Shown: positions 1-14,956, numbered from the stretch's first letter. The stretch: DNA of 64,000 bases from an uncultured Gammaproteobacteria bacterium (GCA_964511375.1 CAZEEW010000003.1:10987-74986), one strand, 5' to 3'. A program made the numbers and translations. Notes: a model not told the origin generated them from the sequence alone.

Positions 1-91
1 TGATAAAGCCGGAATCGAAATTGGTAGAACACTGGAAAATATTCCGACTCCACCAGTACCCATCCCAAGAGGCCTTGAATCAGTAAGTCAT

Positions 92-2281
92 ATGTTAAAG
101 GGTGTTGACCTTGGCGACATCAAAGGTGTGGATCGTGCCAATATAGTCGACATGAAAGTGTTTGGATCATCCGTTGAGGGGAAGCTTAAACCGAATGATG
201 TGGATATTTTTGTGAAAGTGAAAGATGGCTCAATGAAATTCAAAAACCGTGGCGGATTGCCATCGCCGATTGTGGTCAAGAAAGGAAAAATACAATATTT
301 CATAATGCCAGAAAGCCAGGGTGATGAATTGCTCGATGCGATGCTTTATACCGGACGAAAAGATCAAAGCCGATTATATTCCGGTGCAACCGTAAAAGTA
401 CCAAGGAATTATTGGAGCGGTGCTTTGAAAATTGCCGATGATTCGATGAGTCATCCCGGGAGCAGAAAAGCAGTCGATGACATTGCTGACTTCATTCGGG
501 GCGAACATAAAAAATTTGCCACTGCTGAAAAACAGCGTGGTCTTTTGGATTATGAATTGCCTGATTACTTAAGGCACTATCTAACACCTGAAGGGCGTGA
601 ATTTTTACAAAAGAGCGGAATGAACATCACTTCCGAAATAAACAAACCGCTCCGAGTAAAAAACCCATTTGCTAAGACAAGACAGATTGATGACACGGTC
701 GAGGGAATAAACAATTATTTCCGCAAAAGATACGGCGTAAGACTTTTTGAACAGGATGCGTTCAAAGCATTCGCGGCTCGAAAAGCCGAACACATCAAGG
801 CGGTTGGCACATACGACTTCTTGACCGAAATTGGAAAAGAATTCGGTAAGCAAGCTGAAGTGATAACTAAACAGATCAAGAATCCAGTAACCGGAAAGAT
901 GACTGCCAAAGAAATAATCAAACCAATATACGAAAATGGCATTAAATATATTGAAAGCTCTGTGCCTCAATTAAAAGGCACATTGTTGCCCGAACAAATC
1001 GTGAAGCATGTTGATGATACTTATAAGACTTTAACTAATGAGGAAGCAACAAAGAGATTTTTGAAGCTTTACGATAAGGTTCTCGGTTTTTGGAAAGGTT
1101 CGGTCACTGGATGGTTTCCAGCTTTCCACACAAGAAACTTCATGGGCGGTACTTTTAATAATTGGATCGCTGGTGTGACCAATCCTTCAAGATATTTGCA
1201 AGCCGATCAAATAGCCAGAGGATCGAAAGGAATGGTTACTACCAAGATTGGAACTAAGTACGGATACGACCAAATAAAAGAATTGGCAAGCAAATTGGGA
1301 GTGGTCGGTCAGCCGGGATACTTGGATGTTATGAAAGAGGTGGAAAAAGATGCCACTAAAGGGCCGGTGGCCAAACTTATGGGAACGCCTGCAAAAGCAA
1401 TGGAAGTCGTGGAAAACAGACTGCGACTGCCACTGTTTGTTGATCGTTTGATCAAGGGTGATGCACCTGAACAGGCGGCCAAAACAGTCTTCCAATTCCA
1501 CTTCGACTATGCACCGGAAGCTTTGGCACCATTTGAGCAAAATATCATGAAGCGGTTATTGCCGTTTTACAGATGGACTCGTGGAAACATTCCTCTGCAA
1601 CTTGAACAGATGGTAAAACAGCCAGGCAAATATTCGGCCATTGGAAAGGGATTGCAAAACCTCCAATCAGACAAAGAGAAAGCTCAAGAGGAATTTGCTT
1701 CATTGCCTCCTTATATGCGAGAGGGATTGCCGGTCCGACTTGGCGAGAAAGACGGCTTCTCGCAATACATCTACGGGTTCGGTTTGCCTGTTGAGGACAT
1801 AAACAGACTTTATAAAGGAAGCGCAAAAAGAACTGTGGCCAGTATGGTTGGCGAATTATCTCCGCTTCTAAAATACCCAATCGAAGTGGGTACTGGACAA
1901 AATCTATTTACTGGAGAGCCAATAGCCGAATCAAACCGTGTGTATCCGTTTATAAACAAAGTACCGGGGTTAAGAGAATGGCTGGAAGTTAGAGAAAAAG
2001 AAAATAAAAACGGTTCAGTAAGCTACACAGCCAATGCCTACAAGCTTCACTTTTTGAATACCGCATTGGGGAGGTTTTATACCACGGCCGGAAAATTAAC
2101 TGATGACAAAACATCCGGTGCGGTTAAGTTTTTGTATGGATTACTCGGCTCAAAGGCAAAATCAGTGGATATAGAAAAAGAAAAGTATTGGCGAGATCAA
2201 GAACTGCAAGACCGGCTTGAACAAGCATTGGAAAGTAGAGGTCTAATTAGACAATTTGAAAGAGCATATGTACCAAAATAA
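92..2281 (+). CDS. large hypothetical protein with N-terminal minimal nucleotidyltransferase-fold motif; reading frame is open back to the window edge, so the true start may lie upstream
   Basis: 729-aa ORF. VFGSSVEGKLKPNDVDIFV fits the GS-x(9-13)-DxD Pol-beta NTase signature. No in-frame stop between nt 2 and the ATG at 92. The rest is unrecognised. Confidence 0.4.
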   Translation: MLKGVDLGDIKGVDRANIVDMKVFGSSVEGKLKPNDVDIFVKVKDGSMKFKNRGGLPSPIVVKKGKIQYFIMPESQGDELLDAMLYTGRKDQSRLYSGATVKVPRNYWSGALKIADDSMSHPGSRKAVDDIADFIRGEHKKFATAEKQRGLLDYELPDYLRHYLTPEGREFLQKSGMNITSEINKPLRVKNPFAKTRQIDDTVEGINNYFRKRYGVRLFEQDAFKAFAARKAEHIKAVGTYDFLTEIGKEFGKQAEVITKQIKNPVTGKMTAKEIIKPIYENGIKYIESSVPQLKGTLLPEQIVKHVDDTYKTLTNEEATKRFLKLYDKVLGFWKGSVTGWFPAFHTRNFMGGTFNNWIAGVTNPSRYLQADQIARGSKGMVTTKIGTKYGYDQIKELASKLGVVGQPGYLDVMKEVEKDATKGPVAKLMGTPAKAMEVVENRLRLPLFVDRLIKGDAPEQAAKTVFQFHFDYAPEALAPFEQNIMKRLLPFYRWTRGNIPLQLEQMVKQPGKYSAIGKGLQNLQSDKEKAQEEFASLPPYMREGLPVRLGEKDGFSQYIYGFGLPVEDINRLYKGSAKRTVASMVGELSPLLKYPIEVGTGQNLFTGEPIAESNRVYPFINKVPGLREWLEVREKENKNGSVSYTANAYKLHFLNTALGRFYTTAGKLTDDKTSGAVKFLYGLLGSKAKSVDIEKEKYWRDQELQDRLEQALESRGLIRQFERAYVPK

Positions 2282-2501
2282 AAATATGAATGACGAATCT
2301 TATCAAAACAACATGCAGGACAAAAGGCTTGATAGCATCGAAAAGCATATTGTCATTATTAACGAGGAAATGGGGTCGGTTAAAAATGACATGGCTTGGA
2401 TCAAGAAGTTTTTCTGGCTAATTGCCACCGCATCAGTCGGCGGACTTATAACCGCATTAATTAATTTACTAATCTCATTAGCAAAACACTATGGAACTTA
2501 A
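2268..2501 (+). CDS. small tail-anchored membrane protein, holin-like (first gene of overlapping lysis-type cassette)
   Basis: Soluble N-terminus with a single C-terminal TM (WIKKFFWLIATASVGGLITALINLLISL). Its stop overlaps the amidase start (ATGgaacTTAA). Start is uncertain: TTG 2256, ATG 2268 or ATG 2286. Confidence 0.4.
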   Translation: MYQNKNMNDESYQNNMQDKRLDSIEKHIVIINEEMGSVKNDMAWIKKFFWLIATASVGGLITALINLLISLAKHYGT

Positions 2502-3003
2502 ACCTGACAAAATCAAATATTTGATTATCCATCATTCTGCGACCGCCAGAGATACCACAACATTCGATGCGGTAAAAAGATATCACATCTCAAAAGGCTG
2601 GGGTGACATCGGATATCACTTTTTTATAACAGCCAGCGGTAAAGTGATGGCTGGACGATCCGAAAATACGATCGGGGCACATTGCGTGGCTGATAGTATG
2701 AATTTCAAATCACTTGGAATTTGTCTGCCCGGAAACTTCATGACGGAAGTACCAACCGTTGAGCAATTATCTTCACTATTGGAATTACTCAAAAAGCTAA
2801 TGTCGAAGTATAGCATTCCAAAAGAGAATGTTCTCGGACATCGTGAGGTTGTCGGAGCTTCGACGGCTTGCCCGGGAGATAATCTCCAGAAATGGGTATC
2901 CAATTTTAGAGGACAAAAAGACGAAATTGACCGGTCCGCAATTGCCGAACAGGTCATGAATCATTTAGAACAAGCAATCGATAAATTAAAACAAATACTA
3001 TGA
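2491..3003 (+). CDS. N-acetylmuramoyl-L-alanine amidase (Amidase_2/PGRP, T7-lysozyme-like)
   Basis: Amidase_2 hallmarks are present: IIHHSAT, GYHFFI, GAHC and a C-terminal ACPG zinc/catalytic residue pattern. Overlaps both neighbouring genes. Confidence 0.75.
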   Translation: MELKPDKIKYLIIHHSATARDTTTFDAVKRYHISKGWGDIGYHFFITASGKVMAGRSENTIGAHCVADSMNFKSLGICLPGNFMTEVPTVEQLSSLLELLKKLMSKYSIPKENVLGHREVVGASTACPGDNLQKWVSNFRGQKDEIDRSAIAEQVMNHLEQAIDKLKQIL

Positions 3004-3218
3004 CACAAGCACATAAAGAAGCCCTAAAGCACCTTGCGGTCGTTTTTCTGTATTCCGGAGTCTCATCCATCCTGCCGATCCTTTTAGCTTATATACAGAA
3101 TGACCCTCGCTGGGCGTTACTTATACCGATTATAAACTCGGCGTGGTACGCCATAACCCGATACCTGAAAGAAAGGAAACTGATTGAGGAAGCCTTAACG
3201 AGAGGTGATGAATTTTAG
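3000..3218 (+). CDS. small two-TM membrane protein, class-II-holin-like
   Basis: 72 aa with two hydrophobic helices and a charged C-terminus. Its ATG overlaps the amidase stop (ATGA). Confidence 0.4.
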   Translation: MTQAHKEALKHLAVVFLYSGVSSILPILLAYIQNDPRWALLIPIINSAWYAITRYLKERKLIEEALTRGDEF

Positions 3219-3394
3219 CTAATTTAAGCAATTCTGATTAGTAAACTTTTTGAGCAAAAGCCGGAACCTCAAAATAACTAGGATTATCCTTGTAAATTCG
3301 GCGTAATTGGCGTATAATTTTATCAACACGATGAAAAGATAACACCCGAATTGGTTCTAACTTCGGGACATCGTCACCGCCAAGTTTTAGATTT

Positions 3395-3428
3395 AAAAAA
3401 CAAGGTTGTTCCTAGCCTTGTTTTTTGT
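3395..3428 (+). terminator. rho-independent terminator after the lysis-type cassette
   Basis: Hairpin aacaaggtt-N6-agccttgtt followed by a T-run. The arms are near-identical to the terminator at 29522. Confidence 0.5.
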
Positions 3429-3456
3429 TACAATAATACAATATTAATCGCTAATT

Positions 3457-4374
3457 GTGAATTGGTTTATTTTAGCCCTTTTACCTCCTGCTCTTTTGGC
3501 TGGGGTCAACTATATAGACAAGTACCTGGTTAGTAATTTTTTTAAAGAGAAAGCAACCGGGTCGCTTGCAATTTTTTCTGGTTTAGTAGCTATTTTCGTT
3601 GCAAGCATTACGGGGGTCATTAATCCAGAAATTATTTGGCAAAGCAGCTTTTTGACTGCCGGCGGTACAGTTTTAGCGGGATTGATATTATCTTTAGCTA
3701 CGCTTTTTTATTTATATGCCTTAAGGTACAACGATACTTCATTGGTTGTGCCTTACTTTCAGCTGGTAACAGTTTTTACTTATTTTTTAGGCTTGTTGTT
3801 TTTGAACGAAACATTAAATCATGGACAGTTAATAGGATCAATACTGGTGATTGGCGGAGGAATTGCTTTGGCTTTGGAAAGGGAAAATAGAAAAACTAGG
3901 TTTAAAATAAAAACTTTTCTTTTGATGCTATTGGCATCTTTTTTGATTGCTTTAAGCAATTTAATTTTTAAAAAAACCGCTTTGGAAATTGGTTATCTAG
4001 CTTCTGTATTTTGGGGTAGTATAGGAACATTCCTTTTGGGGGCAGTCTTATTCGTTTTGGTAAAAGATTTTCGTTTGCATTTTCGAAAAGTTTTAGCTTT
4101 AAAAAAGCGCTTTGTAATTGGTCTGAATTTACTCAATGAATCTTTGGTTGTATTGGCGGGATTAGTATCTAGATTAGCTGCCTTATTTATTCCCCTCGCT
4201 CTGGTTTCGGTAATAGGTAGTACACAGTCCTTTTTTTCCTTAATTTACGGCATGGGAATAACATTATTTATTCCCTATGTTGCTAACGAAAAAATTACCT
4301 TAACCCATGTAGTATATAAATTTTTGGTTGTAGCGGTAATGTTTTTAGGAGTCTACCTTTTATATTCATTTTAG
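3457..4374 (+). CDS. DMT/EamA-like polytopic membrane transporter
   Basis: 305 aa with about 10 predicted TM helices. GTG start. Confidence 0.45.
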   Translation: MNWFILALLPPALLAGVNYIDKYLVSNFFKEKATGSLAIFSGLVAIFVASITGVINPEIIWQSSFLTAGGTVLAGLILSLATLFYLYALRYNDTSLVVPYFQLVTVFTYFLGLLFLNETLNHGQLIGSILVIGGGIALALERENRKTRFKIKTFLLMLLASFLIALSNLIFKKTALEIGYLASVFWGSIGTFLLGAVLFVLVKDFRLHFRKVLALKKRFVIGLNLLNESLVVLAGLVSRLAALFIPLALVSVIGSTQSFFSLIYGMGITLFIPYVANEKITLTHVVYKFLVVAVMFLGVYLLYSF

Positions 4375-4424
4375 CTTTCTAAAGGCCTTTTTGGTCGAAT
4401 AACTATATGGTATAATGTACTTGT

Positions 4425-4850
4425 ATGAGTCACATATTCGAAGAATCAGAATTTTCAGATTATTCTCAATCAGATGTGTCTTTTTTGGGCTTTAAAAACG
4501 AGCAGTTGTCTTCAATTGAAGCTGAAGGTAAACTTAGTGTAGATGTTTGGCAAAATGATCAGGAAATCACCGTTATGGCTACTATGGCTGGGGCTAAGCC
4601 AGAAAATATTGAATTGCATTTACATAACGATCTTTTAACTATTCGAGGCTTTCGTGAGCGCCCAGACGCCTCAAATAGTGAACCGTATTTTACCGAGTGT
4701 TTTTGGGGTAGATTTTCACGTACAATTGTTCTACCTACTGATGTTAAGCCTGAATTAGCTAAAGCCGAATATCGTCGTGGGGTGCTAACCGTTAGCCTGC
4801 CCAAGATCAAACCGGATAGTTCCATACCAATTATGGTGGTAGAAGAATAA
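4425..4850 (+). CDS. small heat shock protein Hsp20/alpha-crystallin family
   Basis: Alpha-crystallin domain with the terminal motif GVLTVSLPK. An extended -10 (tggtataat) lies upstream. Confidence 0.8.
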   Translation: MSHIFEESEFSDYSQSDVSFLGFKNEQLSSIEAEGKLSVDVWQNDQEITVMATMAGAKPENIELHLHNDLLTIRGFRERPDASNSEPYFTECFWGRFSRTIVLPTDVKPELAKAEYRRGVLTVSLPKIKPDSSIPIMVVEE

Positions 4851-4901
4851 CTTTGTAATACTTATTATTACCCCGGCGGGTTTTTTAGATATCATAAAGA
4901 C

Positions 4902-5732
4902 ATGTTAAATACATTAGAACAATTAAATAGGTTTTTAGAAGAAGCGGCTATCTCGGCACGTATAAATTGGGGTGTTAAGTTTTATGAACTGCGCCCCTTT
5001 TTAGTTTCAAATCTTGAAGAATTAAAACAAAAAATCAGCTCTCGTGGTTACCCCATGGAAAAGCTGGAAATATTATTGAGTGTTTTAAGAGAAGAGGAAG
5101 TCTCTGACATGGAGATCCTTAATGGATTAGAATCTTTGGAAGAGATTTTTACTTTATCTGGGGTCCAGGAAGAAAAAATTGAAAATTTTAAAAATTTATT
5201 AGGAATTTTTCGAAACCGAGTAAACAATGAAGAAAAGTTTAGGAGCTTACGGGGTAAGCTCCTAAAAAATATGAGTCCAGAAAAAAGTGCTGAATATGAT
5301 GTAAAATTGTTTAAGAACGAAGGAATGAATTATTGTTTAGTATATTACGTTTCGGTCTATAAAGCTTTGAGTGAGTTAAATACCCCTGAAGAAAAAAGGA
5401 AGTTTATTGAGGCAGAAGAAGTAAGACTGGAGAACGGTGGCTTACCGGGAATAAAGCAAGATTTTAAAAATGATGAGTCGCTAAACAAGTTTATACTTTT
5501 GATTTTGAAAGACGATTTAAGAGATAACCTAATTGATGTGTTTTATAATTGTAAAGAAACAATTTTGGGGGATGATAATCCAGAGGTAATAGAGAGAAAG
5601 TTGAAAGAGTATATTTATGAATTAATATTGGCCTTTGAAAAACAGGGAATTAAACAATTATCAAGTAAGTTTTTTTCACCTTACGGAGTTAATCCGACTT
5701 TTCAGAATTTACATCCAATTTTTCATTATTAA
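4902..5732 (+). CDS. hypothetical helical protein
   Basis: 276-aa ORF with no recognisable motif. Tightly followed by the 1029-aa ORF. Confidence 0.4.
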   Translation: MLNTLEQLNRFLEEAAISARINWGVKFYELRPFLVSNLEELKQKISSRGYPMEKLEILLSVLREEEVSDMEILNGLESLEEIFTLSGVQEEKIENFKNLLGIFRNRVNNEEKFRSLRGKLLKNMSPEKSAEYDVKLFKNEGMNYCLVYYVSVYKALSELNTPEEKRKFIEAEEVRLENGGLPGIKQDFKNDESLNKFILLILKDDLRDNLIDVFYNCKETILGDDNPEVIERKLKEYIYELILAFEKQGIKQLSSKFFSPYGVNPTFQNLHPIFHY

Positions 5733-5737
5733 TTCCT

Positions 5738-8700
5738 GTGATAGAAATAGAATCAAATCATATTGAACGTCAGCGGAAGGAAGTGCCGACGCGGACGCCA
5801 AACGAGGCGACCAGAAGACGTCGGGAGGCTTTAGAATTGACTAGGCATATTTTGGCTGTGGAGACTAACGGGATGGACGCAGGCGAATCTAAAGAGGAGC
5901 TAAAAAAACGAGTTTACGAGAAAGTTGTCCACTCCCTTACGACTGCCTCTCAGGCCAGGTTAGAAGACGCCTTGGATGAAAATAAGGAAAAAATAGTTTA
6001 TTTTATTCGAGGCGGTCGAGCAGCTCTAAATCGAGAGATTAGATACATACAAGAGGGAGAAAATTTATCAGATAATGAAAAAGAAGAGAAAATTGCTGAA
6101 CTTTACAGGGACTATGCGCATGCTAAGTTAGTAGAAAAATTGACTATTGTAAGGGTTGTTGAATTCTTATTAAAGAATATCTTGAATCCCTATGCCTCTT
6201 CTGAGGAACTGGCCGCCGTTACTGGGTCGGTTAAAAACGGTGAACATTGGACAAGTAATTTTGACCCTGATACTAATCTGGAGATGGGAATGACCGAGTT
6301 CATCTCAGAACCAAAGTTAGAAGAGATCAGGGCCGGTATACAAGTTGCATTACAGATGAGAAGTAAGATAAGAGATTTGATAGAACAAAGCAAAAGTTAC
6401 GATGGACGACCGGATGGTCGTGTGATCGTTCAGACTGTTTTTGGTTTTCAGCCCAAAGGTAGAGTTAAGGTGGTTGAAAGCTCTTTGTCTATTACCCTTT
6501 TATTTTCCGATGACAGTGATTATAGCAAGGCATGGGGTGATGAGAAAATGGCAGATTTATCTGGCGGTTTTCATAGTACGTATTTGTCTAGGGGATCAAA
6601 AAGGAGATTTGGCGATCAGTTCGACCGTAAAGATGAGAACCCAAAAGGAATAGTTAACTGCTCTAAAGGATCCGAATTTAGAGCAAGTACAGTAGCGCAT
6701 GAAAATGAACACTCTTTATATGAGATAACAATGAATAATCGTGGAAAGATAAAATATACGCTTGAAAAAGTCCTTGAGCAGATGATGGGTGCTGGTTCCG
6801 AACAGCAGGAGGTCTACGCCAGAAGAATTTATAATGAGTTTTTCTTTGAAGCCTACAGAAGATTTGTGGCTTCGTTTGCAAACGAAGCTTTGGCATATGT
6901 ATTAAACAATGAAAATGATTATAGCAATGTAGAAAAAATAGTGCAGACCAATTATGATCAGTTAACACAGACTAAATTATATTCGCACCATCATATTACC
7001 GAAGAAGCTGTAAAAGGCATAAAAGATGATATTTTATATGAGGTGGCCCGAATGAGCAAGGAACATGTAGTTGGTTCAGCTGAGAAAGAATCTGCTTTTG
7101 ATTTTTTACTGCAGAGATTAAACGAAATGGGTGGTGGAATAACTAGACAAAGTATTGAAGAGACATGCCGTTCAATTATTAGAATTATTGCTACCTTAAA
7201 ACAAAAGGGTTTTGGTAATGATTACATTCGTGCACTTTTTGCTGGTGAAAGTCCTGCTCGATGGCCGGAGATTGCCGAAAAAGTTATTAATTTTAAAAGT
7301 AATGAAGAGCAGATTAAATCGAAGGAAGCTGAGGCTCTTCACCAAGAGAAGCTTTCCGCCTGGGCTTTGATCCAGTCGATCGATTACGGCGAAGAAGAAG
7401 CTCCCTCTGCGATTCAAAATAGAGAGGATGAACCTAGAGAGGGCAGGCTTGAAATAGTTAACAGTAACGATTATGAATGGATAAGTGTACAGAGCGTAGG
7501 AACAAAAATTAAAGAAAAGAAAAAGCTTTTGCCAGCGGTAGAAGAAAAGAAATACGTAAGAGCCTGTATAGCGGCAAGAAAGGAAGGAGAGGATAAGAAG
7601 AATTTTAGCGGCGATGGTGTAGAGGTTGATAGTAAAGCGGGAGGAGAATATATTACCTTTGAAGGCGGTAGAATATTTTATGATAATGGTGACAAGATTT
7701 TAGATGACCAAAACAAAGTTGTTTTTGATTTTAACAGAAAAAACCTCCTAGGTGATAATCCTAAAAGAAGAGAATTGTTATGCACAAATAAAGGAGCAAT
7801 TGTCACTGGTAAGTTTTATGCTCCCGACGGAATAAAGAGGGTTGTGCTCAGAGAAGATGGTGAGATATTAGGAATGGAATATAAGAATGTTAAGGATTGT
7901 TTTCTGGAACAAGGTGAGCTGTTGATGTTGGTGGATACTGGTTCGGGGTCAGCTCTCATAAAAGAATCTGGTGAAGTAGTGGCAAATTTCAAAATCGATG
8001 ATAAAGAAAAAATATTTAGTGATGGTAAAAAAACTTATTTCTTTGAAGCAGGCGGGGAAGACCTCTATTTCCTCAAAGATACAAATGGGAATATTTTGGG
8101 CAAAAATCAAGGTTATACCGCAGAAGAGATCATGGCAATTGAGCCTAGTCAGTTTGATGGCGGTACGGTCTTAGTTGATTATAGCCAGCCTGACGCAAGA
8201 TATTTCACACTTTATGGTGAAGAGATCCCAACCGATACTAATAGATTTTTTGTTTATCAAGGAGACATTTATTTTAAAGAAATTTCTGGTGTTAGATATC
8301 AAAACTTAGAAGGGAAAAAAATAGGAAGAGAAGATTTTTCTGTTTTTTATCCTTATCGTCGTTTTTCTGATGGGTCTTTGGTATTTCTAGCTCGAGAAAA
8401 AGATACTGCTAATGATTTTTACAGCGATGAGCAAGGGAATGTGCTCGGTTCTCTTTTGTTGGAGAAATATGGTAAACCTAAAGATATTTTTAAAACTCAC
8501 GATGGCCAATATGTTTATTTAGTTGAGAATTCTGACAAAACACAATCATTGCGAAATGAAGGTGGAAATGAAATTTTGAGAGGAAGGTTTGAACAGTTGG
8601 TTGAAACTGATAAAGGTTGGATTTTTGGTGTGTCTGACGACAATAAAGAATCCTTTGCCGTCTTCAACGAAAAAGGAGAAAAAATTAGTGACGATTATAC

Positions 8701-8827
8701 CCCAAGCTCCGAAAATTTAATTGAATACTACGAAACAAGAGGTGGAAATATGGTGTGTAATGTTATTGGAGGAAAACTTGACGATGATGTATTTAAGGTA
8801 ATAAGAGAAAAACTAAAAGTTGGCTAA
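5738..8827 (+). CDS. large hypothetical protein with central HExxH (zincin-like) motif and C-terminal tandem ~35-45 aa repeats
   Basis: VAHENEHSLYE with downstream Glu candidates. Repeated G/D-rich units (DGxxxY/F..E.G.xLG). No signal peptide. Confidence 0.45.
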   Translation: MIEIESNHIERQRKEVPTRTPNEATRRRREALELTRHILAVETNGMDAGESKEELKKRVYEKVVHSLTTASQARLEDALDENKEKIVYFIRGGRAALNREIRYIQEGENLSDNEKEEKIAELYRDYAHAKLVEKLTIVRVVEFLLKNILNPYASSEELAAVTGSVKNGEHWTSNFDPDTNLEMGMTEFISEPKLEEIRAGIQVALQMRSKIRDLIEQSKSYDGRPDGRVIVQTVFGFQPKGRVKVVESSLSITLLFSDDSDYSKAWGDEKMADLSGGFHSTYLSRGSKRRFGDQFDRKDENPKGIVNCSKGSEFRASTVAHENEHSLYEITMNNRGKIKYTLEKVLEQMMGAGSEQQEVYARRIYNEFFFEAYRRFVASFANEALAYVLNNENDYSNVEKIVQTNYDQLTQTKLYSHHHITEEAVKGIKDDILYEVARMSKEHVVGSAEKESAFDFLLQRLNEMGGGITRQSIEETCRSIIRIIATLKQKGFGNDYIRALFAGESPARWPEIAEKVINFKSNEEQIKSKEAEALHQEKLSAWALIQSIDYGEEEAPSAIQNREDEPREGRLEIVNSNDYEWISVQSVGTKIKEKKKLLPAVEEKKYVRACIAARKEGEDKKNFSGDGVEVDSKAGGEYITFEGGRIFYDNGDKILDDQNKVVFDFNRKNLLGDNPKRRELLCTNKGAIVTGKFYAPDGIKRVVLREDGEILGMEYKNVKDCFLEQGELLMLVDTGSGSALIKESGEVVANFKIDDKEKIFSDGKKTYFFEAGGEDLYFLKDTNGNILGKNQGYTAEEIMAIEPSQFDGGTVLVDYSQPDARYFTLYGEEIPTDTNRFFVYQGDIYFKEISGVRYQNLEGKKIGREDFSVFYPYRRFSDGSLVFLAREKDTANDFYSDEQGNVLGSLLLEKYGKPKDIFKTHDGQYVYLVENSDKTQSLRNEGGNEILRGRFEQLVETDKGWIFGVSDDNKESFAVFNEKGEKISDDYTPSSENLIEYYETRGGNMVCNVIGGKLDDDVFKVIREKLKVG

Positions 8828-13456: not shown

Positions 13457-14956
13457 ATGCTTTCGGATTATCAGCGGTATCGAATTTATGAAACATTGCC
13501 TGGTTTAAGCATCTGGCTCACGCTTATTGTTGGTGTAGTTCTGTCTTTTGTAAAACCGCTTTGGATGATTTACGCCGTTTTAGTTTTTGATGTCTATTGG
13601 GTGCTGCGGGTAATTTATTTTTCTTTTTATTTAGTAATGTCTTGGCGCCGTTTTCGCAAATCTATTGCTATAAACTGGTGGAAAAGGCTAACAAAAGAAT
13701 TTCCGAATTGGCGGCAAAAGAAGTGTGTGGTATTTCTTCCGCTATATAACGAAGAATGGAGTATTGTTAAAGCAACTTTGGACGGGTTATCTAACGCGAA
13801 CTATCCTACGCAAGAAATATATGTTGTTTTGTCTGGTGAAGAAAGAAAGTTAGCTCACTGGCTAGAATTACAAAGTAGGATTAAGGAAAATTATTCTGGT
13901 ATATTTGCCGATCTAATATTTTATACTCATCCATCGGGATTGGCTGGGGAAATTCCTGGCAAAGGATCCAATATACATAACGCTGAATGGGAATTTAAAA
14001 AGTACGCTGACGAACGCAATTGGGATTATGGAGATATAGTTATCTCTGTTTTTGACATCGACACTGTTGTCCATAAAGAGTACTTTGCTCATTTAATGTA
14101 CATGTATTTAAGTCATCCTAATCCAACCCGAAGCTCTTTCCAGCCTGTTACTTTATACAATAATAATCTATGGGATTCACCGGCGCCGCTAAGAATTATG
14201 GCCTTCGGTACTAGTTTTTGGATGTTATTTAGCTTGGCGAGATTAGACAACATGGTAACTTTTTCATCACACAGTATGAGTTTTAAGGCCGTGATGGATT
14301 GTGGTGGTCACGCTAAAGATATTGTGAGTGAAGATTCGCGTATTTTTTATCAATGCTGGCTCCGATATAATGGTGAATATGAAGTCTCGCCCTTGTACAT
14401 TCCAGTATCCATGGATACTGTAAATGATGTTAGTGTTTGGAAAAGTCTAAAAAATTTATATTTACAACAACGTCGCTGGGCTTGGGGAGCTGAGAATTTG
14501 TCCTACTTACTATGGGAACTACGCCGCCGCCCAGAAATCCCTTGGACGAAAAAATTAAAAGCGATTTTTATAGAATGGGAAGGTAAGTGGAGTTGGGGAG
14601 TTGTTGCTATCATGATTACCGTACTTGGGCGTTTGCCGCTCTGGTTTGCTGGCGAAGAGCTACGCCAAAGTGCTTTATTTTTTAACACTCCGCATGTTCT
14701 CGAGATTCTTATGACTTTGGCTATGATTGGTTTATTTACTTCAGCCATCATGAGTATGTTGATTTTGCCAACTAGACCGCAGGGTTATTCTTCTCACCGC
14801 TATCTTTATATGATATTGCAGTGGTTGCTTTTGCCGATCTCGTTGGTATTTTTTTCCGCCATTCCTTGTATTGATGCTGTCACCCATTTAATGTTTGGTA
14901 ACTACTTGGGTTTCAATGTTTCAACTAAAAAACGTTTACAACCTAATTATTCATAA
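13457..14956 (+). CDS. family 2 glycosyltransferase, membrane-embedded processive type (cellulose/chitin-synthase-like)
   Basis: QQRRWAWG (QxxRW) motif and D-rich catalytic motifs. Multiple TM helices on both sides. Confidence 0.7.
   Translation: MLSDYQRYRIYETLPGLSIWLTLIVGVVLSFVKPLWMIYAVLVFDVYWVLRVIYFSFYLVMSWRRFRKSIAINWWKRLTKEFPNWRQKKCVVFLPLYNEEWSIVKATLDGLSNANYPTQEIYVVLSGEERKLAHWLELQSRIKENYSGIFADLIFYTHPSGLAGEIPGKGSNIHNAEWEFKKYADERNWDYGDIVISVFDIDTVVHKEYFAHLMYMYLSHPNPTRSSFQPVTLYNNNLWDSPAPLRIMAFGTSFWMLFSLARLDNMVTFSSHSMSFKAVMDCGGHAKDIVSEDSRIFYQCWLRYNGEYEVSPLYIPVSMDTVNDVSVWKSLKNLYLQQRRWAWGAENLSYLLWELRRRPEIPWTKKLKAIFIEWEGKWSWGVVAIMITVLGRLPLWFAGEELRQSALFFNTPHVLEILMTLAMIGLFTSAIMSMLILPTRPQGYSSHRYLYMILQWLLLPISLVFFSAIPCIDAVTHLMFGNYLGFNVSTKKRLQPNYS

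Follow-up and report, generated by a model that had tools for sequence, protein, structure and literature searches.

The window analysed here, a stretch of 64,000 nucleotides from an uncultured Gammaproteobacteria bacterium (GCA_964511375.1, CAZEEW010000003.1:10987-74986), very probably carries at positions 1-3380 the right end of an integrated temperate podovirus-like phage with its lysis cassette, which would have been inserted at a tRNA-Ser gene by a large serine recombinase. The phage part consists of an open reading frame (ORF) that is open to the window start (2-2281) and three overlapping genes that follow it, all on the plus strand. The remainder of the window is cellular chromosome, with the genes for L10, L7/L12, MreB, a class II aminoacyl-tRNA synthetase, five tRNAs and further housekeeping functions. 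The GC content is 0.42-0.43 across the first 3 kb and 0.36-0.37 just past that. A preliminary description, made from the sequence of the window alone, had proposed a possible prophage or tailocin lysis module at the window edge, and the three genes are indeed located at the end of a prophage, the late operon being visible upstream of them in relatives. This is a normal prophage end, thus an element of an ordinary kind, but it comes from a little-studied phage family and its attachment site is resolved to the base. As far as sequence comparison goes, this view is built on the gene content and order, the family of the amidase, a single-base junction with alternative flanks, and the attP and attL forms that are present in relatives.

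The gene order of the cassette recurs in more than 25 independent metagenome contigs and, judged by this recurrence, is beyond chance. The exact sequence of the 72-amino-acid (aa) protein encoded by the last gene is present in 45 blocks of a public collection. Upstream of it we always observed genes for a NosD/beta-helix tailspike, a 433-aa protein, BppU_N, SU10_adaptor and a 563-aa protein, and next in that order two small proteins, a LysM protein, a 1,062-aa protein, the XhlA-like protein that is encoded by the first gene of the cassette, and the amidase. Contigs of 21-25 kb with the identical 72-aa gene contain the full tail module, which is found in L070-L073 (the letter L denotes loci that were compared with the window). 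SU10_MCP is encoded by a related copy on the 1.5-Mb contig GCA_021796435.1 and in L090, while an IMG/VR contig (L007/L085) with 76% identity in the big protein adds TerS, TerL, the portal and the major head protein. The same gene order was found in lysogens on contigs of up to 1.5 Mb. Of the 54 metagenome contigs with the terminal 22-mer of the phage, 17-20 have orthologs that are 70-81% identical in the big protein, about 50% in the XhlA-like protein and about 70% in the 72-aa protein. Every context in which orthologs of the cassette were seen is a phage late operon. The preliminary description had recommended a search upstream of the window for structural and packaging genes, an integrase and attachment sites; capsid, portal, terminase and tail genes, the integrase and the att sites were all found, in relatives. 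The matches to SU10_MCP and SU10_adaptor and the beta-helix tailspike in these relatives resemble the podovirus-type morphogenesis of coliphage SU10 (Kuravirus). Unlike SU10, of which they are only distant relatives, the phages of this group are temperate, and their hosts are, according to the source names, Patescibacteria-type metagenome-assembled genomes (MAGs).

The end of the phage could be placed at a single base. Similarity to L002, L003, L020 and L067-L076 (99.5-100% identity over 0.9-2.6 kb) is gone after position 3380, where the shared sequence ends in GGGACATCGTCACCGC, and L007, at 76%, loses its similarity at the same base. The phage arm (P) of the attachment site, GGTTCTAACTTCGGGACATCGTCACCGC, occupies positions 3353-3380 on the plus strand, and its last four bases, CCGC, are common to it and the tRNA-Ser 3' end. 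At least 11 different flanks follow the identical phage end, several of them clearly chromosomal, such as RecG/RadA, MsrAB, and EamA through L10 in the window; the overall number of distinct flanks is 56. Identical junctions were obtained by independent assemblers (L067 from ENA, L068 from JGI). Samples that contain the phage include JGI 3300007985/6 and 3300025142 as well as SRR29616066. The flanks share two properties: 31 of the 56 begin with CA, the end of CCA (55% compared to 6% expected), and their first 70 nt fold unusually well (mean z = -2.2). In the window, the host arm (B', 3381-3427, plus strand) consists of CA and a bidirectional terminator-like hairpin at 3394-3427 (-15.8 kcal/mol, z = -3.5). 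It is delimited by this folding and by L011, a host contig from another sample, which starts at window position 3376 and is colinear from EamA through L10/L12. This suggests that the host arm is the sequence that originally followed a tRNA-Ser gene. A known RNA at the junction (tmRNA, a group I or II intron, or another) was considered and dismissed, as there was no Rfam match at E≤1 in window positions 1-6000 or in 26 related loci. The breaks gave no ARAGORN call, and a degenerate P-arm pattern retrieved only unrelated high-GC sequences from IMG/VR.

At several other loci, structured elements of 125-270 nt lie just right of the break (L003, L020/L067/L068, L021, L026, L028, L030, L033, L047, L050, L057 and L059), and L025 has three tandem 177-nt copies of such an element. 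Their 3' end corresponds to the last 17-19 nt of tRNA-Ser (AATCCCTCCCTCTCCGC followed by CA), to which the 5' part is complementary. Neither ARAGORN nor Rfam recognises these elements, which may represent an undescribed RNA or pseudo-attB sites derived from tRNA-Ser.

The remaining junction forms were found in relatives. In the attP form of L007, where the proposed attP is at about 14,015-14,075, a sequence ending in CACCGC continues as AATTTCGC and leads into a gene with the domains Resolvase, Recombinase and Zn_ribbon_recom. This recombinase gene reads towards the break, and its stop codon is located 24 nt inside the phage end. In the attL form, which was seen at three independent loci, integrases 81-92% identical to that of L007 end inside the 3' end of a tRNA-Ser gene on the opposite strand, and CTCTCCGC is joined there to AATTTCGC. 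Designated by their arms, the junctions are P+P' in L007 and L100, B+P' in L094, L095 and L098, P+B' in the window and L090, and B+B' in L012. Since the window combines the phage arm with what followed the tRNA, it represents the attR form. The core shared by these junctions is CCGC, at about tRNA positions 71-74. The motif GGTTCNAA is separated from the joint by 28 nt in the P arm, also in L100, and by 23 nt in tRNA-Ser, where it is the T-loop. In the sites of serine integrases, the zinc-ribbon-domain (ZD) motif lies 5 bp nearer the centre in attB than in attP (PMC3783163), and the spacings of 28 and 23 nt therefore match this shift. Judged from these junctions, the phage end has so many flanks because of the many tRNA-Ser loci and hosts, and not because it inserts at random. 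For this particular copy, the integrase and its target would be those indicated by the relatives. The link between integrase and phage is provided by L007, by L100 and by the conserved P arm.

According to the mechanism that we propose, the phage would enter the chromosome by means of a large serine recombinase, whose own gene contains attP at its extreme 3' end and which recombines this site with a tRNA-Ser 3' end. The crossover would take place within CCGC and would leave attR at the joint between 3380 and 3381. Before integration, attB would have read tRNA-Ser followed by CAAGTTTTAG, and the integrase, attL and the tRNA would now lie upstream of the window. With the large serine integrases of A118/LI, phiC31 and Bxb1 this system shares the Resolvase, Recombinase and Zn-ribbon domains, a very short core, the position of the integrase gene beside attP and, compared with attB, a 5-bp outward shift of the distal DNA motif in attP. 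Unlike in those systems, tRNA-Ser genes are targeted here, at their extreme 3' end, and tRNA targets are typical of tyrosine integrases. In addition, attP overlaps here with the last codons of the integrase gene (int), so that the C-terminal tail of the integrase varies with the state of the junction. These tails in fact disclose the junction state, the ending LRR.DSNP being the antisense reading of the tRNA T-arm. The recombinase family is large, with more than 7,765 proteins at E<1e-20 that have these domains and Patescibacteria source names. Most of its members flank defence cargo, such as type I restriction-modification (R-M) systems, a Z1/N6_N4 methylase or SLFN/AlbA_2 (L094, L095-L097, L098, L052 and L100). 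The tRNA-Ser genes at the attL junctions of L094 (11551-11638) and L098 (11557-11644) were assigned the anticodon ACT by ARAGORN; an A at position 34 is unusual for bacteria.

The central gene of the lysis cassette (2491-3003, plus strand) encodes an endolysin of 170 aa, an N-acetylmuramoyl-L-alanine amidase of the Amidase_2/PGRP/T7-lysozyme fold with neither a signal peptide nor a signal-anchor-release (SAR) sequence. It is coupled to both of its neighbours, as had been stated before and as can be read directly from the sequence: the amidase starts within ATGGAACTTAA at 2491-2501, an 11-nt overlap with the stop of the preceding ORF, and its own stop overlaps the start of the 72-aa gene in the ATGA at 3000-3003. 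The assignment to a T7-lysozyme-type amidase in the preliminary description is borne out by the Pfam profile Amidase_2 (PF01510; E 5.7e-24, 85.4 bits compared to a cut-off of 26, profile positions 3-131 of 131), by phrog_822 amidase (E 3.2e-34), and by matches in the PDB to 6SRT (5.5e-20) and to T7 lysozyme 1LBA (6.7e-16, residues 11-136). The predicted Zn ligands H14/H15 (IIHHS), H117 (GHRE) and C127 (ACPG) align with VYHH, RHKD and ECPG of 6SRT. The N-terminus is not hydrophobic, and the maximum hydropathy over 17 residues is 0.85. The amidase thus belongs to the same family as T7 lysozyme (gp3.5) and PGRP-type endolysins, with which it shares the His/His/Cys positions, but unlike T7 lysozyme it has an additional helical C-terminal tail of 35 aa. 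In most relatives the same endolysin slot is occupied by a divergent Amidase_2 protein of 188-189 aa.

The first gene of the cassette (2268-2501, plus strand, with an alternative start at 2286) encodes a tail-anchored XhlA-like protein of 71-77 aa that is putatively a lysis accessory or holin-like protein, as suggested by phrog_1193, its transmembrane (TM) layout and its position. Its start is ambiguous, with TTG 2256, ATG 2268 or ATG 2286 as candidates, and elsewhere gene callers chose forms of 77 or 71 aa. A helical N-terminal part is followed by a single hydrophobic stretch, a C-terminal TM segment at residues 42-67 or so of the 71-aa form, in agreement with the tail-anchored protein with one TM segment that had been described. 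The protein matches phrog_1193 'hemolysin' (E 1.2e-5), while the Pfam profile XhlA (PF10779) reaches 10.6-11.9 bits compared to a cut-off of 34.7, with alignments near full length in three of four orthologs. It is kept at about 50% identity in 18 related loci, and its position is invariant. We regard it as XhlA-like in architecture, and its holin role as putative. The third gene (3000-3218, plus strand), which was delimited by hydropathy and by the ATGA overlap with the amidase stop, encodes the 72-aa membrane protein that is the best holin candidate. It has a strong TM segment at residues 11-32, a weaker amphipathic helix at about 38-56 and a charged tail, KERKLIEEALTRGDEF. The claim of two TM segments thus stands for the first, which is clear-cut, whereas the second is a plausible but weaker helix. 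This layout is that of a holin: the protein is small, has at least one TM segment and a charged C-terminal tail, and adjoins an endolysin without a secretion signal. Pfam and PHROG gave no match at all, and thus none to a described holin family, for this protein or its orthologs, which are about 70% identical in 20 related loci, and a tblastn search with both small proteins against 50,697 GenBank phage records gave no match either. The position and architecture of the two small proteins are what points to their lysis roles. Of the canonical holin-endolysin(-holin/antiholin) order that had been proposed, the phage lysis cassette is therefore retained, but the designation of the first protein as a holin is not, since it resembles XhlA in architecture only.

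In its composition the cassette is most easily compared with the PBSX- and SPbeta-type cassettes of Bacillus (xhlA-xhlB-xlyA). The common features are a tail-anchored XhlA-type protein, a small multi-TM holin-type protein and a signal-less Amidase_2 enzyme, encoded by three tightly linked genes at the end of the late operon, with no spanin and a host without an outer membrane. The order is different, however, being XhlA-like protein, amidase and membrane protein in the window. Furthermore, the similarity to XhlA is weak (1.2e-5 for phrog_1193, 11 bits for Pfam), the 72-aa protein is in no holin family, and the amidase has no cell-wall-binding domain. We propose that the late operon ends with a polyvalent virion protein and then a translationally coupled three-gene lysis cassette. 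The Amidase_2 endolysin would build up in the cytoplasm until the 72-aa protein, aided or regulated by the XhlA-like protein, makes the membrane permeable at a fixed moment; the amidase would then detach the peptide stems from the glycan strands, and lysis would follow. A spanin would be unnecessary where the cell has no outer membrane.

The large gene in front of the cassette (2-2281, plus strand) represents the C-terminal 759 codons of a virion protein of about 1,062 aa, probably of the polyvalent type, as indicated by the open frame, the lengths of its orthologs and a fold match. It had been described as a 729-aa protein, in a frame open to the window start, that is unrecognisable apart from a nucleotidyltransferase (NTase) signature. 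Frame 2 indeed stays open from base 2 to the stop at 2279-2281, so that the true start cannot be the ATG at 92; orthologs of full length (identities of 99% and 76-81%) comprise 1,058-1,062 aa. In relatives the gene is the last big gene of the late operon and directly follows the gene for the LysM-domain protein. Its more than 190 homologs are without annotation and originate from Parcubacteria- and Giovannonibacteria-type MAGs, and neither the protein nor these homologs have a significant Pfam domain, including large polyvalent protein-associated (LPD) or effector domains. It is also homologous to the C-terminal parts of podovirus proteins of 1,312-1,783 aa that adjoin lysis genes. An AF2 model of the conserved last 609 aa (pLDDT 76.9) matched 'Large polyvalent protein associated domain' proteins of BFVD in Foldseek searches (E 7.7e-14 to 1e-10, TM-score 0.45-0.52), with no neighbour in the PDB. 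The structural neighbours are annotated as LPD-containing proteins or as Zeta-toxin, ART or lysozyme fusions. The genes of polyvalent proteins typically lie among the late virion genes, and injection of these proteins along with the DNA has been predicted (PMC5512222). On the basis of this model, the protein would be a polyvalent-type virion protein that is presumably packaged and injected with the DNA. Like the polyvalent proteins described by Iyer et al. in 2017 (PMC5512222), it is a very large late-operon protein encoded beside virion genes, with a conserved scaffold and swappable inserts. Unlike these, it has no significant Pfam LPD or effector domain, and its injection from the virion is a prediction. 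Alignment of homologs revealed a strain-variable insert of about 125 aa (59-451, plus strand); at the same point, homologs P0019-P0138 are empty or have unrelated inserts of 60-210 aa. This insert hot spot is about 300 aa from the N-terminus of the protein. The NTase pattern noted previously is present in it, as FGSS...DVD (G-S...D-x-D) at about nt 164-205, but membership of an NTase family is not supported: the Pfam profiles Polbeta (14.5 bits) and NTP_transf_2 (13.6 bits) stay below their cut-offs of 26.9 and 21, and a profile of the insert reaches only E 0.18-0.41 in the PDB, to aminoglycoside adenylyltransferases. The AF2 model of the insert has a pLDDT of 52, which is too low for a fold search. 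The NTase assignment is sub-threshold and unproven.

Between the cassette and the joint there is a conserved module of 143 bp (3238-3380, minus strand), which contains an ORF of 46 codons (3241-3378, stop at 3238-3240) without a start codon. The att core is exactly where this ORF begins; in the attP form the ORF is co-oriented with int and directly 3' of it, in the +1 frame (L007 13898-14044). Across about 60 other loci it has 46-75 codons and falls into two divergent classes, and it is also found at the ends of non-phage islands. No in-frame start codon was present in about 60 contexts. Changes are in excess at third codon positions, which indicates conservation at the protein level, and the second divergent class keeps this pattern. 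In the protein database, the peptide of the module is carried only by gene calls of 48-80 aa and by no longer protein. We considered that integration might divide the integrase gene, of which the module would be the in-frame C-terminal part, but rejected this idea, as there is no long protein with the peptide and the frames differ in L007. An apparent likeness of the module to the integrase tail QFLLEVRTFFAENP was also discarded; it is a positional coincidence, produced where the int frame runs through another P arm (L100). No ORF was found across the reconstructed circle junctions of small islands. As a speculation that we consider unlikely, the start-less ORF might extend the serine integrase at its C-terminus, in a product that only the excised (attP) genome could yield. 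Translation would enter it through a +1 shift at the UGA stop of int in the att core (UUG-CGG-UGA-C for the window, CUU-UGA-A or GUU-UGA-A in relatives). If this were true, integration would cut the extension off, and the tail of the integrase, perhaps along with its directionality, would depend on whether the phage is free or integrated. At L029 (10332-11245), two tandem terminal modules, each with one convergent cargo gene (for a NUDIX hydrolase and a polysaccharide deacetylase), lie beside tRNA-Ser. This pair is reminiscent of several minimal cassettes lined up at a single integration hot spot.

Several observations weigh against an integrated phage with a serine recombinase and a lysis cassette. 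The window shows 3.4 kb of phage, the capsid, terminase, integrase, attL and tRNA of this copy being outside it. The integrases at the attL junctions flank defence islands and not the phage of the window, and a search for an empty site or a phage-free relative with the exact host-flank pattern gave 0 matches in the metagenome and genome collections. As for lysis, neither small protein has a significant family match (about 11 bits compared to 34.7 for XhlA, no match for the 72-aa protein), and the second TM segment of the 72-aa protein is weak. The phage could accordingly be thought of as a defective remnant, or as a tailocin or lysis module that was domesticated and kept by the host. Such a view, parts of which had been put forward in the preliminary description, would fit with a window that starts inside the big gene and with the existence of small islands composed of the terminal module and one or two cargo genes (L012, L029). 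Nevertheless, we consider it improbable. All four visible genes are intact, and the nearly identical contigs were obtained from several samples at many sites, which points to a recently active phage. Moreover, the 21-25-kb contigs have a full tail module, and relatives with the same late operon encode the major capsid protein (including SU10_MCP), the portal, TerS and TerL, in other words a full head-and-packaging module. The presence of terminase and portal genes on a related viral contig argues against a tailocin, and the short-tailed phage architecture is not known to give rise to tailocins. It is far less probable still that the amidase and its two membrane partners form an AmpD-like host unit for cell-wall turnover that happens to adjoin phage DNA, a reading we regard as close to negligible. 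Amidase_2 also takes in housekeeping enzymes, and JGI labels members of the cluster 'N-acetyl-anhydromuramyl-L-alanine amidase AmpD'. However, the genes are on the phage side of the junction, the best profile matches are phage endolysin PHROGs at 3e-34, and every context of exact or related genes is between the phage virion protein and the phage end. Synteny of amidase orthologs with cell-wall recycling genes, which had been named as evidence for the host, was seen nowhere; the conserved late-operon context argues against a recycling amidase of the host.

The position and nature of the phage end can be questioned as well. Rather than a site-specific joint, the break at 3380 might mark the terminus of a transposable element of the Mu type or of one with low specificity, or else it might be an assembly artefact at a repeat. 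The number of flanks, at least 11 for one phage end, is what such an element would leave, the contigs of L070, L071 and L075 stop 4-32 nt past the break, and the empty site was not recovered. We hold this to be quite unlikely, since CA and a strong hairpin follow the break so often, CCGC joins the integrase gene to tRNA-Ser 3' ends as well as to the phage end, the 5-bp motif offset fits the att sites of serine integrases, and no DDE transposase was seen adjoining the phage end. Random insertion of the Mu type and integron cassettes are ruled out by the bias for CA and hairpins and by the tRNA-Ser junctions, and an artefact of assembly is countered by the agreement between L067 and L068. Alternatively, the phage could end at about 3219-3237, and the 143-bp module would then belong to the host or to an independent element. 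This module also adjoins non-phage cargo (R-M systems, SMR, NUDIX and HAD genes) and is present twice in tandem in L029. On the other hand, it remains joined to the lysis cassette in every identical or related phage contig, whatever sequence comes after it, it is located between the lysis genes and the integrase in the attP form of L007, and its 28 nt at the att end have the geometry of a P arm. An end of the phage before the module is thus very unlikely, and we place it at 3380.

Beyond this joint the DNA is that of the host. The preliminary description had placed a transporter, Hsp20 and two large orphan proteins downstream of the cassette. All four genes, that of the transporter being EamA, are past the joint between 3380 and 3381 and are, by this criterion, host genes. 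The orphan proteins have 276 aa (4902-5732) and 1,029 aa (5738-8827) and match neither Pfam nor PHROG; no relative of the 1,029-aa protein was found among 185,579 GTDB species genomes.

To our knowledge, the lysis genes, virion proteins and integration sites of phages of CPR/Patescibacteria-type bacteria are almost entirely uncharacterised. Prophages of these ultra-small bacteria have been reported (PMC12455944). The present locus offers a compact and conserved three-gene lysis cassette for a cell envelope that is poorly understood, a widespread family of phages whose right end is defined, and candidate attP/attB pairs together with a very large family of serine recombinases aimed at tRNA-Ser 3' ends. 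Such att pairs could become integration tools for organisms without genetics.

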